Shown here in pieces: positions 7,031 through 63,932 of a DNA stretch of 64,000 nucleotides (its first letter is position 1; every line of letters begins with the position of its first letter). A model generated the notes under the pieces. It was not told where the DNA came from, did not search any database, and worked only from the letters and a program-made list of their open reading frames with translations. The stretch lies in assembly GCA_041657885.1 (NCBI GenBank), contig JBBABB010000002.1, positions 25,483 to 89,482 on the forward strand, in the 5' to 3' direction. This DNA is from Minisyncoccota bacterium (GTDB lineage: Bacteria; Patescibacteriota; Minisyncoccia; Phycocordibacterales; UBA9973). The position numbers and the translations under genes are program-made.

Positions 7031-7128
7031 ATTTATCCCCACACCTATATTTCCATCAAAAATATATAACAGCAGGGTATTTTTACTAAAAAAGCAGAAT
7101 GATGGGAATATGGGTGTGGGGATTTATC
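7031..7128. repeat. P-family MITE-like element. TIRs atttatCCCCACACCTATATTTCCATC / GATGGGAATATGGGTGTGGGGatttatc.
   Basis: The inverted pair is visible. The inner sequence aaaaagcagaatgatgggaatat recurs in the copy at 20539-20683. Confidence 0.8.
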
Positions 7129-7207: not shown

Positions 7208-7350
7208 ACCCCCACACCCACTTTTTCATTGCTTTAATATTGTGCCATTAAAATATTCAGAAATATATAAAATATCTTTATAAATCAAGTATAAATAATA
7301 ATATTCCTAAAAAATAAAGCACAATGATGAAAAAGTAGGTGTGGGGGTTT
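7208..7350. repeat. P-family MITE-like element. TIRs CCCCCACACCCACTTTTTCAT / ATGAAAAAGTAGGTGTGGGGG with an AT-rich core of about 100 bp.
   Basis: A perfect inverted repeat of about 21 bp. Confidence 0.8.
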
Positions 7351-7360
7351 ATGCACTTTT

Positions 7361-7527
7361 TATCCCCACACCTATATTTTTATAGATTTTCATCTTTTAA
7401 ATAAAAAACTACTTAATTGGTATTTCTAATAAATTATCGCGTAAAAATAGACATTTTGTATTCAAAATAATAAAAATATAGGTGTGGGGATTTATCCCAC
7501 CTTGCCACCTATATTTTTATTGCAGGC
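7361..7527. repeat. P-family element (tatCCCCACACCTATATTTTtata ... AAAAATATAGGTGTGGGGATTTATC) plus an adjacent partial inverted fragment ccaCCTATATTTTTATTGCAGGC.
   Basis: Inverted TIRs are present. The 3' fragment shares TTTTTATTGCAGGC with the copy at 1209-1287. Confidence 0.75.
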
Positions 7528-7800: not shown

Positions 7801-7826
7801 AAAATATAGGTGTGGGGATTTATCCA
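7801..7826. repeat. Solo P-family TIR (AAAATATAGGTGTGGGGATTTATCC). It contains a perfect DnaA-box-like nonamer TTATCCACA.
   Basis: Identical to the right TIR at 7473-7497. Confidence 0.7.
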
Positions 7827-12121: not shown

Positions 12122-12171
12122 ACCCCCACACCTACTTTGGGATTCAATTATCAAAGTAGGTGTGGGGATGG
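12122..12171. repeat. Short P-family hairpin (ACCCCCACACCTACTTTG ... CAAAGTAGGTGTGGGGAT) in the divergent promoter / 5' leader region of nusA.
   Basis: A 17-bp inverted repeat with the same CCCCACACCTA core as the other P elements. Confidence 0.75.
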
Positions 12172-16944: not shown

Positions 16945-17535
16945 ATGCTTATACCAACAGTTATAGAAAAATCACAATTCGGCGAAAGAGCTTATGATAT
17001 ATACTCTCGCCTTTTAAACGAACGCATTATTTTCCTTGGTGGTCCAATAGACGACCACGTCGCTAATTTAATTATCGCTCAGCTTCTTTATTTGGACCAT
17101 ACCGACCCAAAAAAAGATATTTCACTTTATATCAACTCCCCTGGCGGTTCAGTTACAGCTGGGCTTGCAATTATAGACACAATGAATTTTGTAAAAAGTG
17201 ATGTCTCCACAATTTGCGTCGGCATAGCTGCATCAATGGGAGCACTTATTCTTTCATCGGGACAAAAAGGCAAAAGATTTTCTCTCCCAAATTCAGAAGT
17301 TATGATTCACCAAGTTATGGGAGGCACCGAAGGCCAAGCAAGTGATATTGCAATCAATGCAAAACACATCCTTCGCACAAAAGATACTTTGAATAAAATT
17401 CTTGCCCAAAATACAAATAAAAAAATTGACCAAGTTGATAAAGATTCCGACCGCGACTACTGGATGACCGCTGATGAAGCAAAGAAATACAACATCGTCG
17501 ACGACATTATCACAAAACAAAAAGCTGGAAAATAA
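16945..17535 (+). CDS. clpP: ATP-dependent Clp protease proteolytic subunit.
   Basis: GIAASMGA with the active-site Ser, and the MIHQ His. Position is conserved immediately after tig. Confidence 0.95.
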
Positions 17536-20538: not shown

Positions 20539-20683
20539 CTTGCCCCCACACCTATATTCCCATAGCTTTTATTCTGTTAAGCAAAATTCCTAATCATTTC
20601 ATATTTTTGATTGAATTATAGAGTTATAACCTTTTTTTATTGAAAAAGCAGAATAATGGGAATATAGGTGTGGGGGCTTGTAT
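20539..20683. repeat. P-family MITE-like element. TIRs cttgCCCCCACACCTATATTCCCAT / ATGGGAATATAGGTGTGGGGGcttg.
   Basis: A perfect inverted repeat of about 25 bp. Internal sequence is homologous to the copy at 7031-7128. Confidence 0.85.
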
Positions 20684-46487: not shown

Positions 46488-49400
46488 ATGAGAAAACAAA
46501 CTATAACAAAAATAATTGGAGGTATGATTATCTTTGTTTTCGTTGTATCTTTTTTCCAATTTGCCCTACCTATACAGGCTACTACTACGACAAATCTGCC
46601 AGACCTTTACTCTAATCCAAACCAAACCAGTGCCAAAAATCCATATAAATTCACTTTGGCTTCCGTATTAAAATCTGGAATACTCCAAAATGTTATTGGT
46701 TGTACAGGTGTTGTAAATAAAGTTGCTACTTGGATGTCAACATTGCTACAATCTCCAGCACAAATAGCTAAAACTTTAAAAGCTAAAAAAGATAAAATCA
46801 AAGAACAATTAACAGCAACGTGTTTAGCTGTTAAAGCTGGAGCTCAAATAGCAGGACAAATTATCCCATCTATTGGAGGTCTTGCTCCCGCAATAGATAC
46901 TGCAATGGCAGGTGTAAAAATTGACGGAGTAGAAGTATGTAAGGCGCAAGCTGAAGTGACCGTCGACAAAATGACTGATGCACAAATTGAAGCAAATGAG
47001 AGAGAAGCGGCAAATACCTTAAAAGACCAATGCTTTGACGGTATCGCTATTATGCTTGCTAAGAATCAACTCACTTCTATGACCCGTAGTGCTATGAACT
47101 GGGTAAATACTGGGTACGGAGGCAATCCGTTCTTTGTCCAGAATGTACAGAATTTTGCAAATAAACTTGAACAAAATGTCGTAGAAACAGGAATAGATAT
47201 ATTACTCACACCAAAAAATCAAAACCCATATGCTAGTGATTTTGTTAAATCGGTTATAGCAAGTAGGGGCATAGGAAAAAGTTTTACTAGTTCTCTTTTT
47301 AATCTTAAATCCGACTTGGGAGCTTTTATAACAGACCCACAATCTTATTATACTGAAGAACATCTCAGTGATGCAGAAAAAACACAAATGGCACTCAGAA
47401 GAGCACAGGGTGCAAATAATGCTTTTGCGAATGATTTCTCTGTTGGTGGTTGGGATGGATGGCTTGCCTTAACCCAAAGAGACCAGAATAACCCTCTTGG
47501 TTTTACTATGCTTGCAAGCCAATATTTAGAAGAAGCCCAAACACAAGCAGTGGCTGAGAAAAAAGACGAGTTATTACAAAATAATGGATTTTTAAGTCAG
47601 AAAAAATGTGTTTTGTGGCAAGTGTATGGGGAAGACCATAAACCAAAATATGAGGAGGGTGGTTTTTCTCCATCAGGATTAGCTAAATCATCTTTTACAC
47701 CAATTACTCAAAAAACTAAACCATCTATATGTTATAAATCTGGTGGTGAATGTTGTGTAGAGTGGGAAGTAGTAACCCCCGGAAGTATCATCAAAGAGCA
47801 AACGGCAAATTATTTGGCTTCTCCACAGCGTCAACTTGAGCTTGTAAAAACAATAAACGATGGAATAAATGCTCTTTTTTCTTATTTAATTTCTGAATTA
47901 GAAAATGCCGGCCTTTCAGGACTTTCAGATTCTGTTGATAATCCAGCAAATTTTGACGATAATACAAACTTTATTAGTTCAGATGGAAATACTCCTTATG
48001 ATAACAATGGCGCTTATGATGGTTTCAATCTAACCCGTGACTTAGGAAATACTTATATACACACCACCCCAATAAAATTAGGAAATTGGCATGCTGATAC
48101 AAATGCAACAGATAGTGATTATGACAAAGATGATAATTACGATAATGGAAAATTATATCAAGGAGAAGCTCCTATAGATATTCCTAGTGGAAAAAGTGCT
48201 GTTGACTCATACTACACAGTAACGATAGCCGGAAAAACAGAACTTTTACTTGATGGTTATAATGGTTGGAATGAGGGAGACAGAGCATTTTGGGATGGAA
48301 GTGAGTGGCAAAATTGGAAGAAAGATGTGAAAGATGAAAGTGGAGTAATTCAAAAAACAAACCCTATAAAGAAAAGGGGAGTAATTCAAATTCAACAAGA
48401 TTATATTGTGGCAGCGACTGAGATACTAAAAGTTTTACCAAGTGTAATGACAAAGCTCGGCGAGCTTGATTATTGTATTCCCGGACCAAATCCAAGTTAT
48501 CTAACAAATTCCACAGATGCTCAGTCCGCATATCAGGATTGGGTTGGGTCGCTTTATGTTGGGCCAATAGATGCAGCAAGACAAGTTTATACAATAGACC
48601 ACCCAGGAGAAAGAACGTATGATAATTTAGCAAATATATTTACTGATAGTCCAAGCGTTTGGAAAACAATAAAAAATTCTATGGACTTTTTGTTAGAGAA
48701 TTTTGATAGTTATAAATATATAACTGGTAATATTTTTAGTGGTAGTAATAAAAAACAAAAAATAGTTGACAAAAAAAGAAACTTAATGGATGTTAACATG
48801 GATTATGCAAACAGTAGTCTCTTCCAAAATTTCTATGAGAACTTTGATAAAATGATGAATAAACTCTACTTCAACAATATGACTAGTATGTATAATGAGT
48901 ATGAGAATAGATCAATAACTTTACCGACAACAAATAGCACAGGGGATAAAAACTTAGGTTACATCCCAATGGCTGAAAGCGGGCTTGACCTGACAAAAAA
49001 TATAATGTACTACGCCGAGGATATAGCAAAAGTAACACAAGAGTATAGCGATGATATCGCCATAGCAAAAGTAAATATCGCCAAACTTGAACCAATTAAA
49101 GCGGAAGTGAGTAAAATTATAAAAGATGCACAAGACCGCCGTGATAAAAGATTGCTTGAGATAGTTAATAAAGAAATGTGTAATGAAAATTATACAAAAT
49201 GTATGCAAGATGGATTTGGTCTTACCGGCCAACAGAAATCAGCAATAGGGAATAGGGGTTCCTATTGTAATATAAACCAAACAACTTGTAATGAGAATGA
49301 GAAACCGGTGACAGATGCACAAGTAGCACAATACAAAGAAAAATATAAAGAATGTCTCGCTGAAGAAAATATGAATTTCTATGATGCAGATACAATAATG

Positions 49401-49652
49401 AATATTGGTGGTGCTGACGCTGAAAGATGCTTCAATGGAATTGATGACGATTTAGATGGATTGATAGATACAAAAGATCCTGATTGTTTTGGAGTAACAC
49501 CTGTTGTTCATTGTGTAAGAAGTGGAATTTCCACCCCATATACAGGAAGAATAAATGCTGGAAGTAAATGTTCCGATATAACAGACAGTCAATCTTGTAG
49601 TTTATATCATGAATATGAGTCTAACTTGGCATGGCAGTGTGAATGGAAATAA
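46488..49652 (+). CDS. Large secreted protein (1054 aa) with a Cys-rich C-terminus that includes a TSP3-like Ca-binding motif.
   Basis: Signal/TM IIGGMIIFVFVVSFFQFALPIQA. CFNGIDDDLDGLIDTKDPDC. Confidence 0.7.
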   Translation: MRKQTITKIIGGMIIFVFVVSFFQFALPIQATTTTNLPDLYSNPNQTSAKNPYKFTLASVLKSGILQNVIGCTGVVNKVATWMSTLLQSPAQIAKTLKAKKDKIKEQLTATCLAVKAGAQIAGQIIPSIGGLAPAIDTAMAGVKIDGVEVCKAQAEVTVDKMTDAQIEANEREAANTLKDQCFDGIAIMLAKNQLTSMTRSAMNWVNTGYGGNPFFVQNVQNFANKLEQNVVETGIDILLTPKNQNPYASDFVKSVIASRGIGKSFTSSLFNLKSDLGAFITDPQSYYTEEHLSDAEKTQMALRRAQGANNAFANDFSVGGWDGWLALTQRDQNNPLGFTMLASQYLEEAQTQAVAEKKDELLQNNGFLSQKKCVLWQVYGEDHKPKYEEGGFSPSGLAKSSFTPITQKTKPSICYKSGGECCVEWEVVTPGSIIKEQTANYLASPQRQLELVKTINDGINALFSYLISELENAGLSGLSDSVDNPANFDDNTNFISSDGNTPYDNNGAYDGFNLTRDLGNTYIHTTPIKLGNWHADTNATDSDYDKDDNYDNGKLYQGEAPIDIPSGKSAVDSYYTVTIAGKTELLLDGYNGWNEGDRAFWDGSEWQNWKKDVKDESGVIQKTNPIKKRGVIQIQQDYIVAATEILKVLPSVMTKLGELDYCIPGPNPSYLTNSTDAQSAYQDWVGSLYVGPIDAARQVYTIDHPGERTYDNLANIFTDSPSVWKTIKNSMDFLLENFDSYKYITGNIFSGSNKKQKIVDKKRNLMDVNMDYANSSLFQNFYENFDKMMNKLYFNNMTSMYNEYENRSITLPTTNSTGDKNLGYIPMAESGLDLTKNIMYYAEDIAKVTQEYSDDIAIAKVNIAKLEPIKAEVSKIIKDAQDRRDKRLLEIVNKEMCNENYTKCMQDGFGLTGQQKSAIGNRGSYCNINQTTCNENEKPVTDAQVAQYKEKYKECLAEENMNFYDADTIMNIGGADAERCFNGIDDDLDGLIDTKDPDCFGVTPVVHCVRSGISTPYTGRINAGSKCSDITDSQSCSLYHEYESNLAWQCEWK

Positions 49653-49669
49653 TAAATTATTAAAAATAT

Positions 49670-52600
49670 ATGGAAAAAAACCCTAAAAAAAGTAAAGCTC
49701 TCATCATAACAATAATTTTAATTGTCTTGCTTTTAATTGCTGGGTATTTTATTTTTAAGAATAAAGATAGTATTTTCAAAATTAAAACTTCTACTAATAC
49801 TTTTACTTCACTTCCTGCATCAGAGAATAAACCGGGATTTCTCGCTAAAATATTCTCCCCACTTCTTCCATCAAGTAATTCAAAAAATCTAGATACGGGT
49901 GAGAACATCAAGACTACATACGCAGAAGCGGGAGAAAACATTAAGAAAGGGGACATCGTTTATAAAGTAGGTACAAATAAAAATAATTTGCCTATAGTGA
50001 GAAAAACTGGACTTCAGAATCAAAATAAATTCGGTACTGCCCTTGAAGATATAAATATGGGAAGCTTTGGCAATATTGCTGTTGATAGTAGTTTCTGGGG
50101 AAGTATAAAAGATTTTTTTAATAACACAACAGGTAATATTGGAAACTGGGTAGGTGGAATATTCAGAGGTAATGGTGGAACTGGCCCTAGTAGTAATACG
50201 TGCACAAATGGTGCAACTAATCCGACTTTGTGTACTACTATTGGTGGTAATTGTATAAATAATGCAACTAATCCACCCCTCTGTACGACTATGGATAACG
50301 ATACAAACATTTTCCCCACAGTCACAGTTATAGCAACCCCAGCATCAATTGCAAAAGGTGAATCATCCACTATTAGTTGGGAATCAACAAATGCAGATGC
50401 TTGTAATGCTGGCACTGGTAATGGGACGGGGAAGACGGGGTCATTCTCAACTGGAATACTTCAATCAAGTAGGTCATATACAGTGACTTGTACTGGAGTA
50501 AATGGAACAGGTAGTGGAAATATCTTAGTGGCTGTTGGTGGAGGAGGAAATGTTTGTCCTACCGGCTGGACGGGGACTTACCCTAACTGTACTGATCCCA
50601 ATTCTAATAGTTGCCCTGCCGGTTGGACAGGGACTTTTCCTAACTGTACCAATACTGGAAACTGTCCTGTCGGTTGGACCGGAACTTATCCTGTCTGTAC
50701 TGACCCCAATTCCAATGTTTGCCCTGCGGGTTGGATGGGAACCTACCCTGACTGTACTGACCCCAATTCCAATAGTTGTCCTGTCGGGTGGACGGGGACT
50801 TTTCCTAACTGTACCAATATTGGGGGCTGCCCTCTTGGCTGGACGGGGACTTACCCTGACTGTATTGCCCCTAATTTTATATTTCCCTCTGTCACTGTTT
50901 GGGCAACACCACCAATAGTTGAATACGGTGAAAAATCGGAGATTGGTTGGGAATCAAAAAATACTGAATACTGCGTGGAGGGTGCTGTGGGTAATGCATC
51001 GCCCGATGGTAGTGTAAATAATAAAAAAGGTATAAAAGGAAAACTTACGACGGGAGCATTGCTTAGTAGTAAATCATTTACAATAACTTGTTATGACAAG
51101 AATGGAGGAGGAGTGAGTGGAAGCGTTGTTGTTTTCGTCAACCTAGCTGGAGTCCCAGATCTTCGAGCCACTGACCCGACACCAACGACAGTTCTCGTTG
51201 GAGTAAACACAATGTTCTATTCAGATATAATAAACCAAGGAACTGCATCGACTGGAGAAACTACTTTCTACAACATAATGCAATGGGCAAAACCCGCTTT
51301 TACAACGACTACGACTGGTGCAACTGGTGCGACTAGTCCTGACTCAAGTGACTCTACTGGCGGTTCTTCTTCCTCTGAAACAAACACCTTTATGGATGAA
51401 TCAAAATTAATCCCTATTGATTTGCCAAAAGTCAGGATGAAAACTATTCCAGCGGGAGAATCTCAACCTTTTACAATTGTCTATAATTTTAAAGACATAG
51501 GTACATACTATATAAGAGTTTGTGCCGATAAACAAAGTCAGACAGATGCTGGAAATATTAATGAAGGAACAAATGAAAATAACAATTGCAGCAATTGGGT
51601 AGCAATAGCAGTCACAAATTCACTTCCAACACCATGTCCTCAGCTAACAGATGCTACTGGTAAATGTGTTTCTGTAGATGAATGTCTGGCACTGAATAAA
51701 ATCGTTTCAGGGGATCAATGTGTTGACGACCCATCGGTTTGTCCTCCCCCTAAAATAAAAGATACTACTGGTAAATGTATAGATGCATCTGAAGTTATAC
51801 CACCAAATATTTGTAAAGATATAGAACAAAACCCACTAACTTTCACCCCTGAAGAGAAAGCCAGATTGGCAGTATTGCTCCGTAAGTTTTATCTAATATC
51901 CTCAACCCTTAGAACAAGTGACGATATCTCCACAATATATAGCGACATTGACCAACAGAAAATTTTTATGGGACAAATTGATGGATTAACAAAGCAGTGT
52001 TATTTGCAGATAAATGATACAGATGGATACAAAAATTTCTGTTCAAGAAATCCGAGTTTGTGTAAAACCACAGATATACCTACTTCTGGTATACCTACTC
52101 CTGGCTATAAAGACAATTATTATACACAAGGACAAAACTTAACATTAAGACGCGGAAATCCTTGGTATCAAAAAACGTCGGGTGGAACATTCCCTTACAC
52201 AGGTAATAATGTTTTTGATAAAAATGGTGTTTCGATTAAAGACCCAGAAGGAAAACCAATCACTGCTGGATACATGGATTACAACTGGTTAGAAGGTAAT
52301 TATATAGATAACGGAAATGGTAATTATTCTCCATATTTAAGCCCAAGCCAAAAAGCAAGTGGGGCGTCTTCAACTGCTTCATCAGATGGTCCTGGCTGTA
52401 AGGTTGTATCTGGTTATTATTATGGAACATTAACAAGAGATGTAATTTTAACAAAAGATACCCCTGATATAGGCATACTCATACTAATGATGCCATATCA
52501 AGGAATAATAAATGCTGCAATAGAAGCACTTACTCCGACTAAGGTATGGAGTGCAGGAGAAAGTTGTGATAAATTTAATTTAGACATTAGGGATGATCAA

Positions 52601-52753
52601 AATAATCTAATAACCAATAATTGTTATTACAACAATACAAAAATATTTGGAAATTGGAATGCCCCTCCAAGTCAAACTTTACTTGAAAGTGGCTGTAAGT
52701 GGGTAGATGGAGTGGATATGATAAACACGGAAAGGATTTTGAATATTTGGTAG
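49670..52753 (+). CDS. Large secreted protein (1027 aa) with Ig-like modules, a tandem CPxGWTGTYPxCTDPNSN repeat array and a CARDB-like module.
   Basis: Signal anchor ALIITIILIVLLLIAGYFIF. Six tandem Cys-rich units of 17-19 aa. YIRVCADKQSQTDAGNINEGTNENNNCSNW. Confidence 0.8.
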   Translation: MEKNPKKSKALIITIILIVLLLIAGYFIFKNKDSIFKIKTSTNTFTSLPASENKPGFLAKIFSPLLPSSNSKNLDTGENIKTTYAEAGENIKKGDIVYKVGTNKNNLPIVRKTGLQNQNKFGTALEDINMGSFGNIAVDSSFWGSIKDFFNNTTGNIGNWVGGIFRGNGGTGPSSNTCTNGATNPTLCTTIGGNCINNATNPPLCTTMDNDTNIFPTVTVIATPASIAKGESSTISWESTNADACNAGTGNGTGKTGSFSTGILQSSRSYTVTCTGVNGTGSGNILVAVGGGGNVCPTGWTGTYPNCTDPNSNSCPAGWTGTFPNCTNTGNCPVGWTGTYPVCTDPNSNVCPAGWMGTYPDCTDPNSNSCPVGWTGTFPNCTNIGGCPLGWTGTYPDCIAPNFIFPSVTVWATPPIVEYGEKSEIGWESKNTEYCVEGAVGNASPDGSVNNKKGIKGKLTTGALLSSKSFTITCYDKNGGGVSGSVVVFVNLAGVPDLRATDPTPTTVLVGVNTMFYSDIINQGTASTGETTFYNIMQWAKPAFTTTTTGATGATSPDSSDSTGGSSSSETNTFMDESKLIPIDLPKVRMKTIPAGESQPFTIVYNFKDIGTYYIRVCADKQSQTDAGNINEGTNENNNCSNWVAIAVTNSLPTPCPQLTDATGKCVSVDECLALNKIVSGDQCVDDPSVCPPPKIKDTTGKCIDASEVIPPNICKDIEQNPLTFTPEEKARLAVLLRKFYLISSTLRTSDDISTIYSDIDQQKIFMGQIDGLTKQCYLQINDTDGYKNFCSRNPSLCKTTDIPTSGIPTPGYKDNYYTQGQNLTLRRGNPWYQKTSGGTFPYTGNNVFDKNGVSIKDPEGKPITAGYMDYNWLEGNYIDNGNGNYSPYLSPSQKASGASSTASSDGPGCKVVSGYYYGTLTRDVILTKDTPDIGILILMMPYQGIINAAIEALTPTKVWSAGESCDKFNLDIRDDQNNLITNNCYYNNTKIFGNWNAPPSQTLLESGCKWVDGVDMINTERILNIW
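50540..50880 (+). repeat. Tandem DNA repeats with a 51-57 nt period, encoding CP.GWTGT(Y/F)P.CT(D/N)PNSN units.
   Basis: The six units are visible in the translation. Confidence 0.8.
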
Positions 52754-52863: not shown

Positions 52864-55476
52864 ATGATTAAGAAATTTGTGCCATACATTCTAATAGCTG
52901 TAATACTTGTGCAATTATTTGCGCCGTTTACAGTTGGTATTGGAACAAAAAATAATTTAGTTATAGAGACCAATAAAGCCGAGGCAGATGAAGATATATG
53001 GGATGGAAGCATTGATGGTTACAAAAATGCCTTTCCTAAGAGTTCAGTATCTCAAAATAGTTCATTATATGTAAATGAAACTGAAACTGATTCAGATTTT
53101 ACTGTAATAGTTGATACTGGAATTGCAGATGGTGAATCATCTGTAAATAGGTGGTATCATGTTAAACCTGAAAAAACTAAATTTGCATCTAGTGTTCAAA
53201 GCCTTCTTACTTTCGGAATAGGAGGAGACTATGTTGAATTTGAAGTAAATGGTACCTTTATTTTAGAAGTAGTTGAAGATGGGACAGGTAAAACTGGGTT
53301 CGTTGATATAACAACTACTATTTTAAACGGATATCAATATAGTAGAAAGGCAGGAATGAAGAATAAAATCACAAGAACAGTAGTGATCGATAAAAAATTA
53401 ACACCATCTGGAACGGACGGTGTATCTAGTTTAAAACCTGGCACAAAATATAATGTCTCTTTGTACTATTTATCTTCTATAGAATATGAAAACCCAGATG
53501 TTGTACAAGGAACAGGGGAAACTCTCCCAGGACTTGAGGATAATGGAACAAATTATATACAAATAGCAAGTACTTCAATAACGACAGCAACAAAAGAAGA
53601 ACAAGTATTAATAACTGGGAAAGCTATCGAGAATAGTGTTGTTAATGGTGAAGTTGAAATGCCAGAATGTAGAATAGATTTTTATAATACTATTGGTGGC
53701 TGTCTCGGGCAATTATTATACAAATTGGTCTTCCGGCCATCTTCTGCTTTATTCGCTATTACGGGGAAACTACTAGATGTCTCTATTAGTTATTCAATAA
53801 AAGATACCTCCTATAGGTCTGCATTTGTGGTTGAGGGGTGGAAACTGGTGAAAGATTTCTGTAATATGTTCTTTATTTTCATATTGCTATATATAGCATT
53901 CTCAACTATTTTGAATATTAACAGCGCCAACACAAAACAAATGATTATAAATGTTGTCATCATCGGGCTCCTGATAAATTTCAGCTTGTTTGCCACCCAA
54001 GTTATTATTGATGCTTCAAACGTGCTGACACGAGTATTTTATAATGAAAGTGCCCTTGTTGTGGGAGAGAAGGGCCTTAATGATAAAGTAGTAACCAGCC
54101 AAACTGGAAAATTTGGAGAGATAAGATTATCGGAAGCTATTGTTACAAAAATAGGACCAGTAAAACTTATAACCGATGCAGCAAAAGTTGGAACATCTAC
54201 TAATGCCAATGGGGATGAAATAGTAAACGACGGAGTTACTGCGGGAACATTTATTCTCGTCGTCCTGCTCGCGAGTGCAGTAAATATAGTAGGACTAATA
54301 GTATTCTTGTCTGTTAGTTTAATATTTATAGCGAGAGTTATCGGCTTGTGGTTGGCAATGGTATTTGCACCATTTGCATTCTTTAGTTATATGATACCCG
54401 CAATGCAAAACTGGGAAATGGTAGGATGGAAAAAATGGTGGCCAGATACAATAAAGATGGCATTCTTGGCACCAGTATTTTTGTTCTTTATGTATCTGAT
54501 TATTAAATTCTTAGGCATTATGTCTATTGCTGTTTTTGATGCAGATAATAAATCGGGAATGGATTTCGTAGTAGCGATAATGATTCCGTTTGGACTTGTG
54601 ATGGTTCTGATGTGGAAAGCAAAAGGAATTGCCAAAGATATGTCTGGTAAAATTGGTGACTATGCAACAAAAGTTGGAAAGACAATAGGAGGGGTTGCTC
54701 TAGGTGGAGCTGTAGGAGGCCTCGCGTTAGCTGGAAGACAAACTCTGGGACGTGCAGCAGCAAACTTGTCTCAAAGTAACAAATTTAGAGATTGGGCATC
54801 ACAAAGTAAGTTTGGTAAAAGCGTAGCAAAAATGACAGGTGGTATTGCTTCTGGAAGTTTTGATGCAAGAGGAGTAAAAATTGCAGGTAAAGATTTAGGT
54901 TCAGCAACAGGGCTCAAGGTAGGAAAAAATGTAAAGACTGGAGGATTTGCTAAAGGAAGAGAAGAAAAAGTTAAGAAAGAAGAAGAGTTTGCAAATAAAA
55001 TGCTTGATACAGGTGATTATGGAATGGCTGAATTACAAGGTGGAAAAATGTCAGCAAAAAGAGCAGATAGTGTCGTAGAACAAATGAATAAGGGCAGAGC
55101 AAATGAAAATAAAATGACAGCTTTTGAAATGGGAACAATGCGAGCAAGATTAGTTGGTGGTAATGGGTTAGAATATAAAATGGCAAGAGAGGTGGCTGAT
55201 CAAATGAATTTTGCTAGAAGAAATTCAACAGCAGATTATTTATCAAGAAGTAAATTTATGACAAATAAAATAAAAGCTACTAAGATTAGAAAAAGTGTAG
55301 ATCAAATGAAAACAAGTAGAGATCTAGCAGCTACAGTAGCAGCCCTTGCAGCAGCTCAAAAAGCTGCCGATGGGGGAGGAGGTAAACCAGCGACACACAC
55401 AACACCAACACCCCACACAACACCAACAACGCTGACTACTCCTAGTGCTCCAACAGGTGGAGGTGGACATCACTAA
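52864..55476 (+). CDS. VirB6/TrbL/ConG-like polytopic membrane protein (870 aa) with a large N-terminal extracytoplasmic domain. Candidate T4SS channel component.
   Basis: N-terminal signal/TM, about 330-aa soluble domain, then at least 5 TM helices. K/G-rich tail ending HTTPTPHTTPTTLTTPSAPTGGGGHH. Confidence 0.6.
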   Translation: MIKKFVPYILIAVILVQLFAPFTVGIGTKNNLVIETNKAEADEDIWDGSIDGYKNAFPKSSVSQNSSLYVNETETDSDFTVIVDTGIADGESSVNRWYHVKPEKTKFASSVQSLLTFGIGGDYVEFEVNGTFILEVVEDGTGKTGFVDITTTILNGYQYSRKAGMKNKITRTVVIDKKLTPSGTDGVSSLKPGTKYNVSLYYLSSIEYENPDVVQGTGETLPGLEDNGTNYIQIASTSITTATKEEQVLITGKAIENSVVNGEVEMPECRIDFYNTIGGCLGQLLYKLVFRPSSALFAITGKLLDVSISYSIKDTSYRSAFVVEGWKLVKDFCNMFFIFILLYIAFSTILNINSANTKQMIINVVIIGLLINFSLFATQVIIDASNVLTRVFYNESALVVGEKGLNDKVVTSQTGKFGEIRLSEAIVTKIGPVKLITDAAKVGTSTNANGDEIVNDGVTAGTFILVVLLASAVNIVGLIVFLSVSLIFIARVIGLWLAMVFAPFAFFSYMIPAMQNWEMVGWKKWWPDTIKMAFLAPVFLFFMYLIIKFLGIMSIAVFDADNKSGMDFVVAIMIPFGLVMVLMWKAKGIAKDMSGKIGDYATKVGKTIGGVALGGAVGGLALAGRQTLGRAAANLSQSNKFRDWASQSKFGKSVAKMTGGIASGSFDARGVKIAGKDLGSATGLKVGKNVKTGGFAKGREEKVKKEEEFANKMLDTGDYGMAELQGGKMSAKRADSVVEQMNKGRANENKMTAFEMGTMRARLVGGNGLEYKMAREVADQMNFARRNSTADYLSRSKFMTNKIKATKIRKSVDQMKTSRDLAATVAALAAAQKAADGGGGKPATHTTPTPHTTPTTLTTPSAPTGGGGHH

Positions 55477-55483
55477 TTAAACA

Positions 55484-56449
55484 TTGTTTAAACAAAATTA
55501 TAATCATATGGAAACAGAAATAGAAGAAATAATAAAACAACAATTGGAATATTTACCAAAAGAGATTGTGGATCTTTTTACTAATCCAAAATTAAGTGAT
55601 AAAATATTTGAAATAGGAAAAGAAAATAAAATTAATATTGAACAGTTAGATATTTTTCAAACTGAAACCTTCTTATTGATATTAGGGTTAACTAATTCTG
55701 ATGAGTATGAAGAGGAGTTGAGAAATAAGTTAAATATAAATAAAGAAACTATAGATAATATAAAAAAGGGGATATATTCATTTATCTCAAATGAAACACT
55801 GGAAAAAATTAAAGAAATATATAAACAAACAACAAACGAGATCTTTGAGGGAGGGGACCCAGACATAGACAAACCACTTATTTTAGATCCTCGTTTCGAA
55901 AATGCCCCACAAGAAACTCAGAAAGCTATTGCTAAATCAGGATGGAAAGAGAGGTTGTATTCAATCGCACCAATATATAAACTCAATGTTGAACAAATGG
56001 GAATTTTGGAAGAAACTACCATAAAAGTAATACTTGGTGAAATACACCCAGACAAATATGAAGATGAATTAGCTTCCAAAATAACAATACCAAAAGAAGA
56101 TGTCGCAAATCTTGTAATTGATATCAATGAAAAAATTTTTAAAGTAATACGCGGGGTAGAAAAGAAATATTGGGATAAAGAAAAAACAATTACAAATGAA
56201 GATGAAATTCCTCTTCCTCCATATGCAAAAATAATTAATAATGAAGATGAAATTCCTCTTCCTCCTCCTAGTATCAAACTTGATACAAAAATAATAGAAA
56301 AAACTGAACTAATTCAACCAATTATTGGAATAACAAATACTCCTCAAAATATAATAGAGGAAAAATTAAAGGGTGTAACAGTAAGTGACCATACGGTATC
56401 AGACCATTCATTACCTAAAATGAATGACCCTTATCGGGAAACGATTTAA
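55484..56449 (+). CDS. Hypothetical soluble protein (321 aa) with a tandem NEDEIPLPP repeat.
   Basis: ORF. The 45-bp direct DNA repeat at about 56196-56270 encodes the duplicated peptide. Confidence 0.5.
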   Translation: MFKQNYNHMETEIEEIIKQQLEYLPKEIVDLFTNPKLSDKIFEIGKENKINIEQLDIFQTETFLLILGLTNSDEYEEELRNKLNINKETIDNIKKGIYSFISNETLEKIKEIYKQTTNEIFEGGDPDIDKPLILDPRFENAPQETQKAIAKSGWKERLYSIAPIYKLNVEQMGILEETTIKVILGEIHPDKYEDELASKITIPKEDVANLVIDINEKIFKVIRGVEKKYWDKEKTITNEDEIPLPPYAKIINNEDEIPLPPPSIKLDTKIIEKTELIQPIIGITNTPQNIIEEKLKGVTVSDHTVSDHSLPKMNDPYRETI

Positions 56450-56540
56450 TTCCTCCCCTCCTTACCAAGGAGGGGAATGAGGGGAGGTTCTTAATTAATT
56501 AGGAACCCCTCCCCAGCCCTCCCCAAAGGGAAGGGAATCC
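56449..56540. repeat. Family B GC-rich palindromic element, intergenic copy (reverse complement of the rsmA copy).
   Basis: TTCCTCCCCTCCTTaccAAGGAGGGGAATGAGGGGAGGTTCTTAATTAATTAGGAACCCCTCCCCAGCCCTCCCCAAAGGGaAGGGAA. Confidence 0.85.
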
Positions 56541-56565
56541 TATTTATTAATGTTATAATATAAAA

Positions 56566-56976
56566 ATGCAATTCAAAGTCCCACAATTTATTGATATCGA
56601 GGACAAATTATTTGGCCCTTTTACTTTCTTTCAGTTTGTATACCTTGTGGGAGGAGCTGGAATAGTGTTTGTCATATATAAAATTTTCCCTTTGTGGATT
56701 GGTATTTTTCTTATTATTCCAGTTGCTATATTATCTGTCCTGCTTGTCTTTTATAGAATAAACGGAAAACCTTTTATTTATTACCTTCAGGCTGGAGCTA
56801 GTTATCTCGTTTCAAGTAAATTGTATATATGGAAGCAGAGATTAATAAATCCAAATAGCAAGAAAAAAGAGGAGGAAGCACAAGCTCCACAAATGGTTTC
56901 GGTCATTCCGATGACATCAAATGACAAATTGAGAGACATATCTTGGAGTTTGGATGTGGAAGGGAAGGAGAAGTAA
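56566..56976 (+). CDS. Small two-TM membrane protein (136 aa), candidate VirB3/PrgI-like T4SS component.
   Basis: Two adjacent hydrophobic helices. The position just upstream of the VirB4-like ORFs is inferred from gene context. Confidence 0.45.
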   Translation: MQFKVPQFIDIEDKLFGPFTFFQFVYLVGGAGIVFVIYKIFPLWIGIFLIIPVAILSVLLVFYRINGKPFIYYLQAGASYLVSSKLYIWKQRLINPNSKKKEEEAQAPQMVSVIPMTSNDKLRDISWSLDVEGKEK

Positions 56977-56985
56977 TAATGTGTG

Positions 56986-57051
56986 AATTCCCCTCTTGAG
57001 GGGTGCCTGAAAGGCGGGGTGGATGAATTTGAGGGGAATTAAAATTCTTTC
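56986..57051. repeat. Family C element, shortened copy (AATTCCCCTCTTGAGGGGTGCCTGAAAGGCGGGGTGGAT...GAGGGGAATT).
   Basis: The left arm matches 44458-44497. Outer inverted ends are retained. Confidence 0.75.
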
Positions 57052-57078
57052 AGTAACAAATTATGTTATAATTATAAT

Positions 57079-57732
57079 ATGGCCATTAGTGCAAAAAGCT
57101 CTCAAGAGTTTGTATCAATTAAAGAAGTTAGAAACGGTATCATCGTCCTAAAAGACGGGGGACTTCGGTCTGTGCTAGTGGCATCTTCTTTGAACCTTTC
57201 TTTAAAATCCTCCGAGGAGCAGGCTGCAATAATAAATGGATTTCAAGGTTTTATAAATGGGTTAGATTTTTCTACTCAAATAGTTGTGCAATCCCGTCGG
57301 CTAGACATTAGACCATACCTTCTTCTTTTAGAAAACAGAATTAAAGAGCAAGTAGAACCACTTTTAAAGATACAAACGAAAGAATATATTAATTTTATAA
57401 AATCTTTCACAGATGAAGTGAACATTATGACAAAAACTTTCTTTATTGTGGTTCCTTATACTCCTACAATAATAAAATCTAGTGGTAAGATGATGGATAG
57501 TTTACTTGGTGGAGGTGCACCAAAGAAACAGGTTGAAGATACAAAGAGAGCGATTGACATGGCCTCTTTTGAGGAAAAGCGCACCCAGCTTGACCAACGG
57601 GTAAGAGTTATAAGCGAAGGACTTGGAGGAATGGGAATTAGAACATCTGAACTTAAAACAGACCAGGTTATTGAACTTTTTTATAAAACATTCAATCCAG
57701 GAGATATTAGTCAGGGAATTAAATTACAATAA
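57079..57732 (+). CDS. VirB4/TcpF/PrgJ-type ATPase, N-terminal domain (217 aa), encoded as a separate ORF abutting the ATPase ORF.
   Basis: KEVRNGIIVLKDGGLRSVLVASSLNLSLKSSEEQAAII resembles the N-terminus of Gram-positive VirB4-like proteins. Stop TAA at 57730-57732, next ATG at 57735, different frame. Confidence 0.55.
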   Translation: MAISAKSSQEFVSIKEVRNGIIVLKDGGLRSVLVASSLNLSLKSSEEQAAIINGFQGFINGLDFSTQIVVQSRRLDIRPYLLLLENRIKEQVEPLLKIQTKEYINFIKSFTDEVNIMTKTFFIVVPYTPTIIKSSGKMMDSLLGGGAPKKQVEDTKRAIDMASFEEKRTQLDQRVRVISEGLGGMGIRTSELKTDQVIELFYKTFNPGDISQGIKLQ

Positions 57733-57734
57733 GT

Positions 57735-59570
57735 ATGTCAATATTTTCAAATTTATTAGGAAAAAAGAATAACATCTCTAAAAACAAGAGCATGGTTATG
57801 CCTGTTTTACCAAGTGAAATATATAAAGCGGCAGCACTTGAACTTCAGGATATTATCGCTCCATCAGCTCTTCAGATAACTCCAAGGTCACTAAACCTCG
57901 GAGACAAAATAGCAAGAACATTCTTTGTAATATCATATCCACGGTATCTTAGTGATAATTGGTTCTCTCCAATTATAAATTTGGATAAGGTTTTTGATGT
58001 ATCTATTTTTATCCACCCTATTGACACAGCAGAAATATTGAGAACATTTCAGAAGAAAGTAGCCGAGGTTCAGAGTCAAATCTCTGTTCGTGAATCAAGG
58101 GGGCTAGTGCGAGACCCAATGCTTGATACTGCATACCAAGACCTTGAAAATTTACGAGATAATCTTATGCAAGCTCAAGAGAAAATGTTTAATGTTGGTC
58201 TTTATATCACAGTTTATGCTGAGAATGATAACGATTTATTTAAAATTGAAAATGAAATTAAATCTCTTCTTGAATCAAAACTCATCTATCTAAAGCCAGC
58301 ACTATTTCAGCAGGCTGAAGGATTTAAAAGTGTTATTCCTTTAGGAACAGACGTGCTAGGTATTCACCAAAAACTCAACACTGAACCACTTTCAAGTATT
58401 TTCCCATTCGTCTCTTTTGACTTAACTGATGATAAAGGAATATTGTATGGGGTCAATCGCCACAATTCTAGCTTGATTCTTTTTGATAGATTTTCCCTCC
58501 CAAACTACAACTCCATAATTTTTGCAACTGCTGGAGCTGGTAAATCTTATGCCGCTAAATTAGAAATTATTCGTACTTTAATGTTTGACACAGAAGTTAT
58601 CGTCATAGACCCAGAGCGTGAATACGAATATCTAGCTGAAGCAGTAGGAGGTAGATATTTTAACATCGCTCTTTCTTCCGACCACCATATAAATCCTTTT
58701 GAATTACCTATTCCCACAGGAGATGAAACAGGGGCAGATGTTCTCCGCTCAAATACTATAAATCTTGTAGGGTTGTTCCGCATAATGCTTGGAGGATTAA
58801 CACCAGAAGAAGATTCTATTATAGATAGTGCTATCACAGAGACATATGCCTTAAAAGATATTACCGCGGAGTCAGACTTTAGAAATATTGAGGTTCCATT
58901 ATTAACGGACTTTGAGATGGTTCTCTCTGGAATGGAGGGAAGCGATTCGCTTGTCCAGCGCTTGACCAAATATACTCACGGGTCTTGGGCATCATTTTTA
59001 AACCAACCATCAAACGTTGATATCAACCGAAAATTTATAGTTTTCTCTGTCAGAGATATGGAGGATGAACTAAAACCTGTAGCAATGTATATTGTTACTC
59101 ATTATATTTGGAATTCTATTCGTAAAAATATTAGAAAAAGATTACTTGTAGTAGATGAGGCCTGGTGGATGATGAAATCAGAAGATACTGCATCGTTCCT
59201 CTATTCTATTGCTAAAAGAGGACGAAAATACTGGCTAGGACTTGCAACTATTACTCAAGACGTAGGGGATTTTATGAAAAGCGCTTATGGCATACCTATT
59301 ATTACTAACTCTTCTATTCAATTACTTCTAAAACAGTCCCCAGCAACAATAGATGTCTTACAAAAAACATTCAGTCTTACAGAGGAAGAGAAATATTTGC
59401 TGTTAGAGGCAAATGTTGGAGAAGGTATCTTTTTTGTTGGCCTAAAACACGTTGCAGTTAAAACAATCGCTTCTTATACCGAAGACCAAATTATCACATC
59501 TGACCCTTCACAAATTTTGGCTATCAAAAAAGCAAAAGGGGAATTATTGGCGGCGGGGAGTAGTAATTAG
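57735..59570 (+). CDS. VirB4/TraC/ConE-like T4SS ATPase, C-terminal motor portion (611 aa).
   Basis: Walker A FATAGAGKSYAAK, Walker B LLVVDEAWWMM. Walker A sits about residue 265, so about 200 N-terminal residues appear to be supplied by the preceding ORF. Confidence 0.85.
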   Translation: MSIFSNLLGKKNNISKNKSMVMPVLPSEIYKAAALELQDIIAPSALQITPRSLNLGDKIARTFFVISYPRYLSDNWFSPIINLDKVFDVSIFIHPIDTAEILRTFQKKVAEVQSQISVRESRGLVRDPMLDTAYQDLENLRDNLMQAQEKMFNVGLYITVYAENDNDLFKIENEIKSLLESKLIYLKPALFQQAEGFKSVIPLGTDVLGIHQKLNTEPLSSIFPFVSFDLTDDKGILYGVNRHNSSLILFDRFSLPNYNSIIFATAGAGKSYAAKLEIIRTLMFDTEVIVIDPEREYEYLAEAVGGRYFNIALSSDHHINPFELPIPTGDETGADVLRSNTINLVGLFRIMLGGLTPEEDSIIDSAITETYALKDITAESDFRNIEVPLLTDFEMVLSGMEGSDSLVQRLTKYTHGSWASFLNQPSNVDINRKFIVFSVRDMEDELKPVAMYIVTHYIWNSIRKNIRKRLLVVDEAWWMMKSEDTASFLYSIAKRGRKYWLGLATITQDVGDFMKSAYGIPIITNSSIQLLLKQSPATIDVLQKTFSLTEEEKYLLLEANVGEGIFFVGLKHVAVKTIASYTEDQIITSDPSQILAIKKAKGELLAAGSSN

Positions 59571-59571
59571 A

Positions 59572-59666
59572 TACACCCCCTCTGCTTTTAGCATCTCCCC
59601 CTTCGCAGGGGGCGAGGAATTCTTCCTCCCTTGCGAAGGGGAGGTGTCCAAAGGACGGAGGGGTGA
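59572..59666. repeat. Family A GC-rich element, full two-armed palindromic copy of about 95 bp.
   Basis: ACACCCCCTCTGCTTTTAGCATCTCCCCCTTCGCAGGGGGCGAGG-aattc-TTCCTCCCTTGCGAAGGGGAGGTGTCCAAAGGACGGAGGGGTG. Confidence 0.8.
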
Positions 59667-59730
59667 ATCAAATTATAGGTTGTTAGAGAAGCAGGATTAT
59701 TATATAATATATAAAGTGAAATTTACAAAA

Positions 59731-60711
59731 ATGAAAATCTTTCTCGTCGGATTTTTTATTCTGGGGATAATAAATATCCCTTATATTTCTTCAGCTGAAA
59801 TGCAAATTGAAGTGCAGGAAGGAGAAATAAACGTGGAAACAAGTCCAAACAATCCACAACCATACCAAGATGTAACAATCAATCTATCTAGTTATGCAAC
59901 CGATTTAAACAAAGCAACAATAATGTGGCAAGCGGAATCGGGAGTTGTTCTATCTGGGATAGGTAAAACGAGTTATTCTTTTAAAGCTCTAGGCCCAAAT
60001 ACCATCACTGTTTTTAATATCAGTGTTACCCCAGCAGGCTCTATGAACACAATAAATAAGAGGGTGGTTATTGCTCCATCTGAAATTGAAGTTATGTGGG
60101 AATCTGCTGACGGATATACTCCGCCTTTTTATAGAGGGAAGTCTCTTCCAATTAGTGGTGCAGTGATAAGAGCTGTGGCAATTCCAAATACAAACACAAT
60201 AAAATCTGGTAGTGGAAGTATTACCTATACGTGGAAAAATGGTGACAACACAGTACTTGAAGCTTCTGGATATAATAAAAATGCTTATGTATTTAAAAAT
60301 AGTATGTTTGATGAGAAAAATACGATAACGGTAATCGCTTCGTCAGTCAGTGGGGATTATGGGGCAGAAAACACAATAGATATACCACTCTATCAACCTA
60401 AAATAATTTTTTATAAAAAATCACCAACAGATGGTGTTCTTTATAATAAAGCTCTTGATAAAGAAACTGCTATGCCTGAAGATGAAATGACAATCGTGGG
60501 TGAACCATATTTTTTATCTATCAAAGGGAAAGAAGGTTCTTTTAATTACAACTGGAAAATAAATGGGAGTAGTATACAAACACCAACAAAGAAAACAGAA
60601 TTAACAATAAGGCCAAATTCTCGTGGAGGATATGCTACTATAAGTTTAGTAATTGAAAATATAAATGAATTATTCCAAAGTGTTAGTAATCAGCTAAAAA
60701 TCAATCTTTAA
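59731..60711 (+). CDS. Secreted beta-rich protein with Ig-like modules (about 326 aa from ATG 59731).
   Basis: Signal peptide MKIFLVGFFILGIINIPYISSA. The ORF-track start at 59452 is a spurious extension through the GC-rich repeat. Confidence 0.6.
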   Translation: MKIFLVGFFILGIINIPYISSAEMQIEVQEGEINVETSPNNPQPYQDVTINLSSYATDLNKATIMWQAESGVVLSGIGKTSYSFKALGPNTITVFNISVTPAGSMNTINKRVVIAPSEIEVMWESADGYTPPFYRGKSLPISGAVIRAVAIPNTNTIKSGSGSITYTWKNGDNTVLEASGYNKNAYVFKNSMFDEKNTITVIASSVSGDYGAENTIDIPLYQPKIIFYKKSPTDGVLYNKALDKETAMPEDEMTIVGEPYFLSIKGKEGSFNYNWKINGSSIQTPTKKTELTIRPNSRGGYATISLVIENINELFQSVSNQLKINL

Positions 60712-60712: not shown

Positions 60713-61981
60713 ATGAAAAAAAATGAAAATAAAAATATTTATGGAGTAGTTGGCGGGTTTTTCCTTTCTATTTTTATAATATTTCCTTTTTTTGTAACAT
60801 TAAAAGCGGAAGCTGTAACCACATTTTATGAGTATATTAATGTGGGAGGGGTACAAAGTAGAATTTGTGGAATGAAATATGAAGCGATGTGTAATATTGC
60901 TTTACAACAAATCCCTGGATGTGAAAAATTTTCATGCTCAAAAACTTCGCAACTAGATAATTATATTTGTGTTAGTGCAATTCCTCCTATTTGTCCCAAA
61001 GACGAGGTGCAAACAGTTGACCCTCAAAAAGACACCCCAAAAAGTGATGTTTATACATTTCTCGCTCCTTTAACAGAAGAAAAAACAGCACCAAATAATA
61101 TTGGAGATTATTTTAATTGGATATTTACTTTAGCCATAGGTCTTTGTGGTGCCCTTGCTGTTATTATGATTGTGATAGGAGGAGTAACATATATGGGAAG
61201 TGAATCTATTTTTGGCAAAACAGAGGCAAAGAAACAAATAACAAATGCAATACTGGGTTTATTGATTGCTCTTGGGGCTTTTGCACTACTTAATACTATT
61301 AATCCAGACCTTCTGAAAACCGATATTAATATAAAGCAAGTTAGTGCAGAGATAGTAAACTTTGATGTTTCTGGATCAGCAACGTTTGATGGGAAGCCCA
61401 TTAAAATCAATTTCAATAAAGAGGCTTACCCGGCTGCAAAAATCGCTTCAGAAAAAACAGGTGTTGAGACCGCTTTTATTCTAGCTATGTTTGCCCAAGA
61501 AACTGGCAGTGGAAGTAATACCGGGGGTTGTAATTATTCAAGTGCAAATATGGGGAGCGGTCAATTAGATTCCCTAAAGACAGTTGCAACTAGTTTGGGT
61601 CTTGATTATACAAAAATAAATATGTCTTGTAGTGGAGGAGGTAGTTCTCATGGAGGAGCGATAGGATATACTCAATTTCTCCCAGGCACATGGCTTCTAT
61701 ATCGTGCCGAGGCAAAACAATTGCTAGGGCATGAACCAAATCCATGGAACACTGCTGATGCTCTGATGATGACAGCTTTATTCCTAAAGAGGAATGGGGG
61801 TGCTGGTTCTAATCCTGCTAGTCAAGAAGCGGCGGCGTGTAAATATTTCGGTAGTTGTTCTGTGGTTGTTAGTTGCGGGGGTGGAAAAACAGGGACTTAC
61901 GGACAATGTATAATGGGTAAAAAATTGAGTATACAACAACAGATAGATGAGGCAATTAAAAATGGAGAAATAAATAAATAA
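60713..61981 (+). CDS. Membrane protein with an N-terminal signal, a two-helix hydrophobic hairpin and a C-terminal SLT-type lytic transglycosylase domain (VirB1/CwlT-like).
   Basis: AQETGSG ... GAIGYTQFLPGTW resembles the SLT motif E-S...GxxGxMQxxPxTW. Hydrophobic hairpin NWIFTLAIGLCGALAVIMIVIGG...ILGLLIALGAFALL. Confidence 0.6.
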   Translation: MKKNENKNIYGVVGGFFLSIFIIFPFFVTLKAEAVTTFYEYINVGGVQSRICGMKYEAMCNIALQQIPGCEKFSCSKTSQLDNYICVSAIPPICPKDEVQTVDPQKDTPKSDVYTFLAPLTEEKTAPNNIGDYFNWIFTLAIGLCGALAVIMIVIGGVTYMGSESIFGKTEAKKQITNAILGLLIALGAFALLNTINPDLLKTDINIKQVSAEIVNFDVSGSATFDGKPIKINFNKEAYPAAKIASEKTGVETAFILAMFAQETGSGSNTGGCNYSSANMGSGQLDSLKTVATSLGLDYTKINMSCSGGGSSHGGAIGYTQFLPGTWLLYRAEAKQLLGHEPNPWNTADALMMTALFLKRNGGAGSNPASQEAAACKYFGSCSVVVSCGGGKTGTYGQCIMGKKLSIQQQIDEAIKNGEINK

Positions 61982-63461: not shown

Positions 63462-63932
63462 CTATATACTACTATCCACGTATTTAATAACAACCCGTCG
63501 AGTTGAGCCATACCCCTCTGATTCTGTTTTAATATCTTTAGCGCCTTCTAAAAACATATGGACAATTTTTCTCTCATAGGCAGGCATTGGATCAATCTCA
63601 ATATTGCTCTTAAAATAGCGAGCACGTTCTGCCATCATGTGAGCAATATTTTTTAAATTTTCAAAACGCTTTTTCTGATAACCATTAACATCAATAAAAA
63701 TAGTTGGACCCTTTTCTTCGGTTTCAACTACATCTTTTTTTACTATTTTTTGAACAAGATGATTTAAAGAGCGTAGTGTTTCTCCATCTCGCCCAATAAT
63801 GAAACCAGAATCAGGAGTTTCTATCATGCACCAAAGCATTCCATTTTCATTAGAAAATTCAAGTTTAGAAATAACACACGACGCGTGTTTAAAAATTTGC
63901 TCTATAGCTTCTTTTATCTTGTCTTCTTGCAT
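63462..63932 (-). CDS. jag: Jag/KhpB-family RNA-binding protein (KH-like plus R3H).
   Basis: C-terminal R3H-like PMPAYERKIVHMFLEGAKDIKTESEGYGSTRRVVIKY. Confidence 0.75.
   Translation of the reverse strand: MQEDKIKEAIEQIFKHASCVISKLEFSNENGMLWCMIETPDSGFIIGRDGETLRSLNHLVQKIVKKDVVETEEKGPTIFIDVNGYQKKRFENLKNIAHMMAERARYFKSNIEIDPMPAYERKIVHMFLEGAKDIKTESEGYGSTRRVVIKYVDSSI

Follow-up and report, generated by a model that had tools for sequence, protein, structure and literature searches.

The 64,000-nt stretch of DNA analysed here (hereafter the window), from contig JBBABB010000002.1 of a Minisyncoccota bacterium (assembly GCA_041657885.1), contains two abutting open reading frames (ORFs), ORF1 and ORF2, which are very probably two separate functional genes for a VirB4 that most type IV secretion systems (T4SS) make as one polypeptide, the pair being transcribed, coupled in translation and reassembled at the protein level in the manner proposed below. 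ORF1 is a TrsD-family ('TraC-like') protein equivalent to roughly the initial 200 residues of the N-terminal domain of VirB4, and ORF2 comprises the rest of that domain together with the ATPase domain. VirB4 is, to our knowledge, the one universal T4SS component. The genes and motifs concerned are the following:

56566–56976, forward strand: gene for a small membrane protein of the PrgI/TcpE family (VirB3-like), directly 5' of the pair; Pfam PF12666 PrgI, E 1.5e-7, 32.3 bits against a cutoff of 27; its position is that of trsC in pSK41
57079–57732, forward strand: ORF1, TrsD-like / 'TraC-like', 217 aa, the detached VirB4 N-terminal subdomain; TAA stop at 57730–57732
57733–57734, forward strand: spacer GT, 2 nt, from the ORF1 stop to the ORF2 start (3 nt in the sister strain L001)
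57735–59570, forward strand: ORF2, the VirB4 core, 611 aa, second part of the N-terminal domain and RecA-like ATPase domain; matches to NF045971, 4AG5, TrwK and TrsE
58524–58547, forward strand: Walker A, ATAGAGKS, ORF2 residues 264–271, read as a motif
59142–59159, forward strand: Walker B, LLVVDE, ORF2 residues 470–475, read as a motif

An initial annotation of this DNA had described two ORFs lying 2 nt apart in different frames, and these coordinates were borne out exactly, the TAA of ORF1 being followed by GT and then by the ORF2 ATG at 57735, which is in a different frame from the ORF1 ATG at 57079. The Walker A motif, which had been placed at about residue 265 of ORF2, was likewise found there. 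It had further been suggested that approximately 200 N-terminal VirB4 residues were missing from ORF2 and that the 217-aa ORF (with the motif IVLKDGGLRSVLVASSLNLSLKSSEEQ at residues 21–47) was the missing N-terminus, and both suggestions were supported by a scan against NCBIfam. ORF2 matched NF045971 (conju_CD1110) with 370.5 bits (cutoff 325) over positions 183–732 of 752, positions 1–182 being absent, and residues 16–121 of ORF1 matched positions 9–115 of the same CD1110 VirB4 profile, so that the two ORFs tile one protein without overlap. The 611-aa ORF alone is thus not a complete VirB4, and the 217-aa protein aligns with the N-terminus of VirB4 rather than with some unrelated family. The order was the same on the VirB4_plasma model (894 positions), where ORF1 was found at 102–233 and ORF2 at 287–885. 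ORF2 scored below the cutoffs for TIGR00929 (110 vs. 643) and TraC-F-type (166 vs. 567), as is expected of a distant monoderm-type member.

Further confirmation of the identity of ORF2 was seen in its matches to Pfam P-loop_TraG (88.3 bits, cutoff 25.8), to the solved VirB4 C-terminal domain 4AG5 (ORF2 residues 230–588, E 6.6e-40) and to TrwK, the VirB4 of R388 (ORF2 residues 259–555 with TrwK 446–735, E 2.7e-6). As residue 259 of ORF2 corresponds to TrwK 446, ORF1 and the first 258 residues of ORF2 account for the pre-ATPase region of approximately 445 residues in TrwK; in length, ORF1 (217 aa) and the N-terminal part of ORF2 (258 aa) amount to 475 aa, compared with 445 in TrwK. ORF2 therefore has what is looked for in a member of the VirB4 family, namely Walker A and B motifs, ATPase-domain homology, a score above a curated cutoff and adjoining VirB3-like and T4SS genes. 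A complete N-terminal domain was not found within the ORF2 polypeptide, the whole protein being the sum of both ORFs. Judged by the profile coordinates, the cut appears to fall inside the N-terminal domain (approximately at profile position 115–183 of 752), away from the boundary between the N-terminal and ATPase domains.

For ORF1, an AlphaFold2 model was built with a 44-sequence alignment (mean predicted local distance difference test score, pLDDT, 82.9) and submitted to Foldseek. Ranks 1–14 were all TrwK chains, with probabilities of 0.97–1.00, and the values thereafter were no higher than 0.30. The predicted fold of ORF1 superposes on TrwK, and by homology and fold the protein qualifies as a VirB4 N-terminal segment. 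The family PF26593 ('TraC-like') was present in the precomputed database annotation of ORF1 (P0001) and of all 120 of its closest homologues; a local hmmscan of ORF1 against Pfam returned no match, even at an E of 10. In R388, the VirB4 N-terminal domain comprises residues 15–400 and lies at the central/outside dimer interface, with VirB3 wrapping around it (PMC9259494). It is inside this domain, which there contacts VirB3 and forms the VirB4 dimer, that the motor encoded in the window is cut.

The arrangement was found to be conserved well beyond the window. A search of a large protein database yielded a total of 4506 ORF1 homologues, the best 120 of which were all 215–219 aa in length, 76–100% identical and from Paceibacterota/Nomurabacteria, and the homologue records place the host of the pair in Ca. 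Paceibacterota. Eighty loci from different species were collected with a 12-sequence alignment, 78 of which hold both genes, and the junction was analysed by script. In all 78 of these loci, at 59–94% identity, a stop codon closes the ORF1 homologue and VirB4 begins at its own ATG, with an N-terminus that is likewise its own and conserved (M-G/S-I-F-S). The position of the ORF1 homologue, directly 5' of the VirB4 gene and 3' of a VirB3-like gene, is common to the window, to 78 of 78 related loci and to trsC-trsD-trsE of pSK41. Given the thousands of homologues of each ORF and a pairing found again at all related loci that were examined, the arrangement is not due to chance, and of the three explanations put forward by the initial annotation it was the naturally split VirB4 that was upheld by the stop and separate ATG in every species.

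Fusion of the two parts is real but rare. Among 150 representatives of 50%-identity clusters of the ORF1 family, 148 were unfused and two were fused to a VirB4 core, these being P0217 (797 aa, in three Colwellbacteria metagenome-assembled genomes) and P0253 (898 aa, on four contigs). P0217 matched TIGR00929 (VirB4_CagE) in one stretch, residues 17–750 corresponding to profile positions 18–725, with Pfam TraC_F_IV extending across the junction; its N-terminal part is 40% identical to ORF1 and its C-terminal part 55% identical to ORF2 residues 37–597. P0253 is 38% identical to ORF1 and 49% identical to ORF2, in the same order, and contains a disordered linker of about 90 residues (approximately 230–320) at the point where the window has its stop and restart, which places the cut at a flexible linker inside the N-terminal domain. 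Long, disordered, low-complexity extensions in which P, Q, T and A abound were seen in about 36 of the 150 representatives (P0136, P0141, P0159, P0199 and P0267 among others), giving total lengths of 263–443 aa; most extensions are C-terminal, and some are N-terminal (as in P0147 and P0252).

These tails, together with TrsD homologues located away from virB4 in Gracilibacteria (PMC12102498), would suit a different explanation, in which ORF1 arose from the VirB4 N-terminus but is now an independent accessory or adaptor protein, for example one that is regulatory or binds a substrate or host factor, and not a stoichiometric piece of the ATPase. This was considered unlikely, given the strict adjacency of the two genes in the clade (78 of 78 loci), the viability of fused forms in Colwellbacteria, a fold that still superposes on TrwK, and an ORF2 that keeps the rest of the N-terminal domain and would otherwise be incomplete.

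The spacer between the two genes was 1 nt in 20 loci, 4 nt in 10, 6 nt in seven, 2 nt in six and 3 nt in five, and an ATGA overlap was present in four; most of the remaining spacers were 5–15 nt long, and 14 of the 78 loci had spacers of 31–288 nt. Adjacent ORFs that tile one protein would also suit recoding, in which the pair would yield a single fused VirB4 through programmed frameshifting, readthrough or bypassing. However, the length of the spacer modulo 3 varies freely among the species (1, 2, 3, 4, 5, 6 nt and so on), so that no conserved frameshift or readthrough mechanism is possible and no single frameshift could serve. In L001 the two ORFs share a frame with a TAA between them, ORF2 always has its own ATG, no conserved slippery site was found, and an Rfam search over the window returned four tRNAs only, with nothing at the ORF1/ORF2 junction. 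Recoding was therefore judged very improbable.

The other two explanations offered by the initial annotation, a frameshift pseudogene and a sequencing or assembly error, did not survive comparison with related DNA. A pseudogene, that is, a once-intact virB4 lately broken by an indel and now decaying, might be suspected from ORFs that abut, 2 nt apart, in different frames and from the existence of rare fused homologues (two of the 150 representatives). It is, however, scarcely credible in view of the same break between intact ORFs in 78 of 78 species, the thousands of ORF1 homologues with a nearly constant length among the closest 120, and the conserved N-terminus and ATG that ORF2 has for itself. 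Both ORFs are, moreover, under strong purifying selection. Between the window and L001, the proportion of nonsynonymous differences (pN) in ORF1 was 0 and that of synonymous differences (pS) 0.083, and the ratio of nonsynonymous to synonymous substitution rates (dN/dS) in ORF2 was 0.05; other pairs gave a pN of 0.05–0.15 and a pS of 0.6–0.8, pN thus being far below pS in both ORFs. An assembly error, meaning a spurious indel in the contig, has nothing to recommend it besides the frame change at the junction and hardly deserves credence, as five independent assemblies from different samples (NCBI, JGI, ENA and two Logan assemblies) agree on an identical ORF1 protein and the same stop, the junction DNA of L002 and L003 is identical to that of the window, and that of L001 (TAA-TAT-ATG vs. 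TAA-GT-ATG in the window) has one extra spacer base with both ORFs intact.

The sequences surrounding the pair include three further elements that bear on its expression:

56986–57040, no strand assigned: GC-rich inverted repeat AATTCCCCTC ... GAGGGGAATT, 3' of the prgI-like gene and 5' of ORF1, with 10-nt perfect arms; its fold is no better than that of shuffled sequence (z −0.66)
57064–57072, forward strand: extended −10-like box TGTTATAAT, putative promoter of a leaderless trsD-virB4 transcript, ending 6 nt 5' of the ORF1 ATG; read from the sequence
59574–59665, forward strand: 92-nt near-perfect GC-rich hairpin beginning 4 nt past the ORF2 stop; −61.9 kcal/mol, z −6.8, a value that 0 of 200 shuffled sequences reached

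A TAnAAT box ending exactly 6 nt before the ATG of the ORF1 homologue was found in 26 of 70 related loci, and the prgI-like gene of the window has the same layout, with an extended −10-like box at approximately 56551–56559. Similar boxes (TGnTATAAT) were also observed 6–7 nt before the ATG of the genes at 16945, 27399 (reverse strand), 29435 (reverse strand), 30234 (reverse strand) and 42435. The closeness of these −10 boxes to the ATG suggests leaderless mRNAs. A simple promoter/terminator scan of 56300–59900 did not list the box 5' of ORF1, and showed no enrichment over shuffles, so that the promoter assignment rests on comparative spacing. The hairpin at 59574–59665 is likely to be the 3' boundary of the unit, whether as a terminator, an RNA-stabilising hairpin or a palindromic repeat element. 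Weaker GC-rich palindromes follow two upstream genes (56469–56524 and 56986–57040), in AT-rich intergenic DNA, and none is present between ORF1 and ORF2; the palindromes after the T4SS genes could be terminators, RNA-stability elements or repeats resembling repetitive extragenic palindromes (REP-like). From the −10 box, the 3' hairpin and the lack of a palindrome between the ORFs, trsD-virB4 was read as one two-gene unit.

For this unit we infer a leaderless two-gene transcript, coupling of ORF2 to the termination of ORF1, and reassembly of the products on PrgI. Transcription would run from the extended −10 box 6 nt 5' of the ORF1 ATG to the hairpin past ORF2. A Shine–Dalgarno (SD)-like motif was found in 4 of 42 window genes, and as the genome barely uses SD sites, SD evidence on coupling is uninformative; it is on account of this near absence that ribosomes ending ORF1 are proposed to restart at the ORF2 ATG 2 nt further on (termination–reinitiation), which would result in approximately equal amounts of both proteins. 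Such coupling fits the spacers of 1–8 nt, or the ATGA overlaps, of most species. The ORF1 and ORF2 proteins would then come together again, without a covalent link, as a VirB4-like ATPase docked on the VirB3-like PrgI, and this ATPase would power the chromosomal Patescibacteria T4SS.

Several results weigh against a two-gene VirB4 expressed and reassembled in this way. When the ORF1 family alignment was used as a profile against PDB chains, chance matches alone were obtained (E > 1), and an hhalign comparison of the ORF1 profile with the TrwK sequence was not significant (probability 0.35%), the short match lying at residues 112–133 in both. These searches by sequence failed to reveal the relationship to TrwK that the fold comparison had brought out. 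As the fold search does not give the aligned residues of ORF1 and TrwK, the N-terminal placement of ORF1 rests on profile coordinates. Against the NCBIfam TrsD/TraD model NF041427, ORF1 reached 25.8 bits (E 8.2e-6) with a cutoff of 200, and it appears to be a remote homologue that stands outside the narrowly defined staphylococcal/enterococcal TrsD subfamily. When TrsD of pSK41 was compared with the ORF1 family profile, its residues 32–217 aligned collinearly with positions 6–203 over 175 columns (hhalign E 1e-4), at a probability of only 57.6%. With regard to expression, the ORF1 promoter and leaderless start are consensus matches only, and coupling is not obligatory, since 14 of the 78 species have spacers of 31–288 nt, 11 of them with an inserted element.

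This inserted element is a mini-element with terminal inverted repeats, CCCGTTAGAG ... CTCTAACGGG, observed at the trsD|virB4 junction in 11 of the 78 related species and absent from the window; its repeats take the form CCCGTTAGA(G/A) ... (C/T)TCTAACGGG. The long form, of approximately 276 nt, encodes an 84-aa GIY-YIG nuclease (PF01541, E 6.6e-17), whose reading frame closes with a TAA inside the right repeat, 4 nt ahead of the host ATG. The short forms, of 115–130 nt, fold into long hairpins (z −3.8 to −4.8). The copies located in the species loci include the following (coordinates are those of each locus):

L006 5656–5931; L029 5663–5938; L035 5667–5942: mini-element, long form
L010 2452–2566; L028 1870–1984; L054 5662–5776; L057 5650–5769; L062/L080 5671–5789: mini-element, short forms
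L006 8812–8918; L056 3188–3463: mini-element at other sites

In the species loci, 17 of 17 copies, at several sites, were followed directly by an ATG. Metagenome copies (loci L087–L166) were found via an 18-mer at the right end, and the counts that follow are among the matches listed. An ATG was abutted by 90 of 126 copies and a GTG by 8 of 126; of 83 ATGs abutted in this way, 73 begin an ORF 60 aa or longer; and at least five of six flanking bases were equal on the left and right in 60 of 116 copies, corresponding to an ATGNN target duplication. The mini-element has the look of a cassette that lacks a promoter and targets the start codons of leaderless genes for insertion, and no description of a GIY-YIG/inverted-repeat element targeting start codons was found in the literature searched. 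A start-codon-targeting cassette might originally have cut VirB4 in two or kept the break open, the two-piece state having persisted because the pieces still assemble, but this origin is quite doubtful.

A second class of repeats was observed within the window itself. The 11-mer CCCCACACCTA occurs in 13 copies, compared with 0.34 expected by chance, and is found in six units bounded by inverted repeats, approximately 44–140 nt in length and clustered especially at 7.0–7.8 kb. These repeats are a family specific to the source genome and similar to miniature inverted-repeat transposable elements (MITE-like). Their positions are:

1214–1281; 7037–7121; 7210–7346; 7364–7489; 12124–12167; 20544–20675: CCCCACACCTA units
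7807–7817: solo copy of CCCCACACCTA

The remainder of the T4SS cluster lies on either side of the pair, and one further gene of the system was recognised downstream:

60713–61981, forward strand: T4SS gene with a pilin-like transmembrane region and an SLT lytic transglycosylase domain; PF18895 T4SS_pilin, E 4.3e-6; PF13406 SLT_2, E 2.2e-8

In this ORF, PF18895 is located at residues 134–193 and PF13406 at residues 237–373, VirB2-like and VirB1-like parts thus being present in one protein. Between it and virB4, a mechanical ORF call at 59452–60711 (419 aa from a TTG start) shares sequence with the end of virB4 and continues through the hairpin; judging from the sequence, its true start is likely to be the ATG at approximately 59734 (MKIFLVGFFILG..., signal-peptide-like). 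Just 5' of the T4SS core genes, 46488–52753 and 52864–55476 hold three ORFs of very large size (1054, 1027 and 870 aa) that are essentially without Pfam matches; the 870-aa protein, with its polytopic look and low-complexity C-terminus, may be VirB6-like. The cluster is flanked by housekeeping genes (PNPase, a ComM-like Mg-chelatase ATPase, a UvrD-like helicase, KsgA and KhpB/Jag), and its location is chromosomal. No relaxase or coupling protein was found among the ORFs scanned, which were a subset of those in the window. The KhpB/Jag-type protein, with KH and R3H domains, is encoded at the window edge (63462–63932, reverse strand). In many bacteria the KhpB/Jag gene is found near rnpA-yidC-oriC, and its presence here would agree with a remark in the literature placing the T4SS clusters of Patescibacteria close to the replication origin; neither dnaA nor oriC was seen within the window.

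The pair was compared with known systems, beginning with the Staphylococcus plasmids pSK41/pGO1 (MPF_FATA, pGO1 subclass), the prototype trs operon of pGO1 having reportedly been sequenced in 1993. In these plasmids the order of a VirB2-like gene, trsC (in the VirB3-like position), trsD (227 aa) and a VirB4-like gene (672 aa) is equivalent to that of the PrgI-like gene, ORF1 and ORF2. Residues 36–616 of pSK41 TrsE align with residues 39–576 of ORF2 (E 2e-33), and as ORF2 residue 39 corresponds to TrsE 36, the two VirB4 cores share their starting point in the fold. The ORF1/ORF2 break is the TrsD/TrsE break, and it is the normal state in Patescibacteria. The pSK41 pair differs in having a spacer of 14 nt and approximately 19–22% identity, and pSK41, being a conjugative plasmid, carries a relaxase and a coupling protein, whereas the cluster in the window is situated among chromosomal housekeeping genes. 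Full-length VirB4 proteins (R388 TrwK, 823 aa, and the CD1110 family of Firmicutes integrative and conjugative elements) are covered by ORF1 and ORF2 jointly and share with them the Walker A and B motifs and a VirB3-like neighbour; R388 TrwK and the CD1110 VirB4 are, however, one polypeptide where the window has two. The fused TrsD-VirB4 proteins, P0217 of Ca. Colwellbacteria and P0253, show the same order in a single ORF.

The chromosomal T4SS of Patescibacteria have been described by Quinonero-Coronel et al. (2025; PMC12102498). According to that article, no T4SS component is more abundant in Patescibacteria than TrsD (2,272 homologues, of which 1,664 adjoin virB4), TrsD is remotely homologous to the N-terminal portion of VirB4, and in Ca. 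Southlakia epibionticum ML1 the TrsD homologue is essential. The system is the same as that of the window, with a TrsD-like gene directly 5' of virB4, PrgI/VirB3-like and pilin genes nearby, a chromosomal location and a Patescibacteria host, and the pair is a member of the published TrsD-VirB4 set with no substantive difference. The searches made of the article brought up no mention of the equivalence of the breakpoint, the junction spacing, the rare fused forms or the promoter anatomy. The T4SS of Patescibacteria is reported to be essential for epibiotic growth. That its motor is made in two pieces matters for both structural and genetic work on these organisms. ORF1 and ORF2 should be annotated as separate genes, the first for a TrsD-like N-terminal subunit of VirB4 and the second for the VirB4 ATPase core, with no pseudogene flag and no merging. 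The two-piece arrangement was already known, and its recovery from this DNA is a correct re-discovery.

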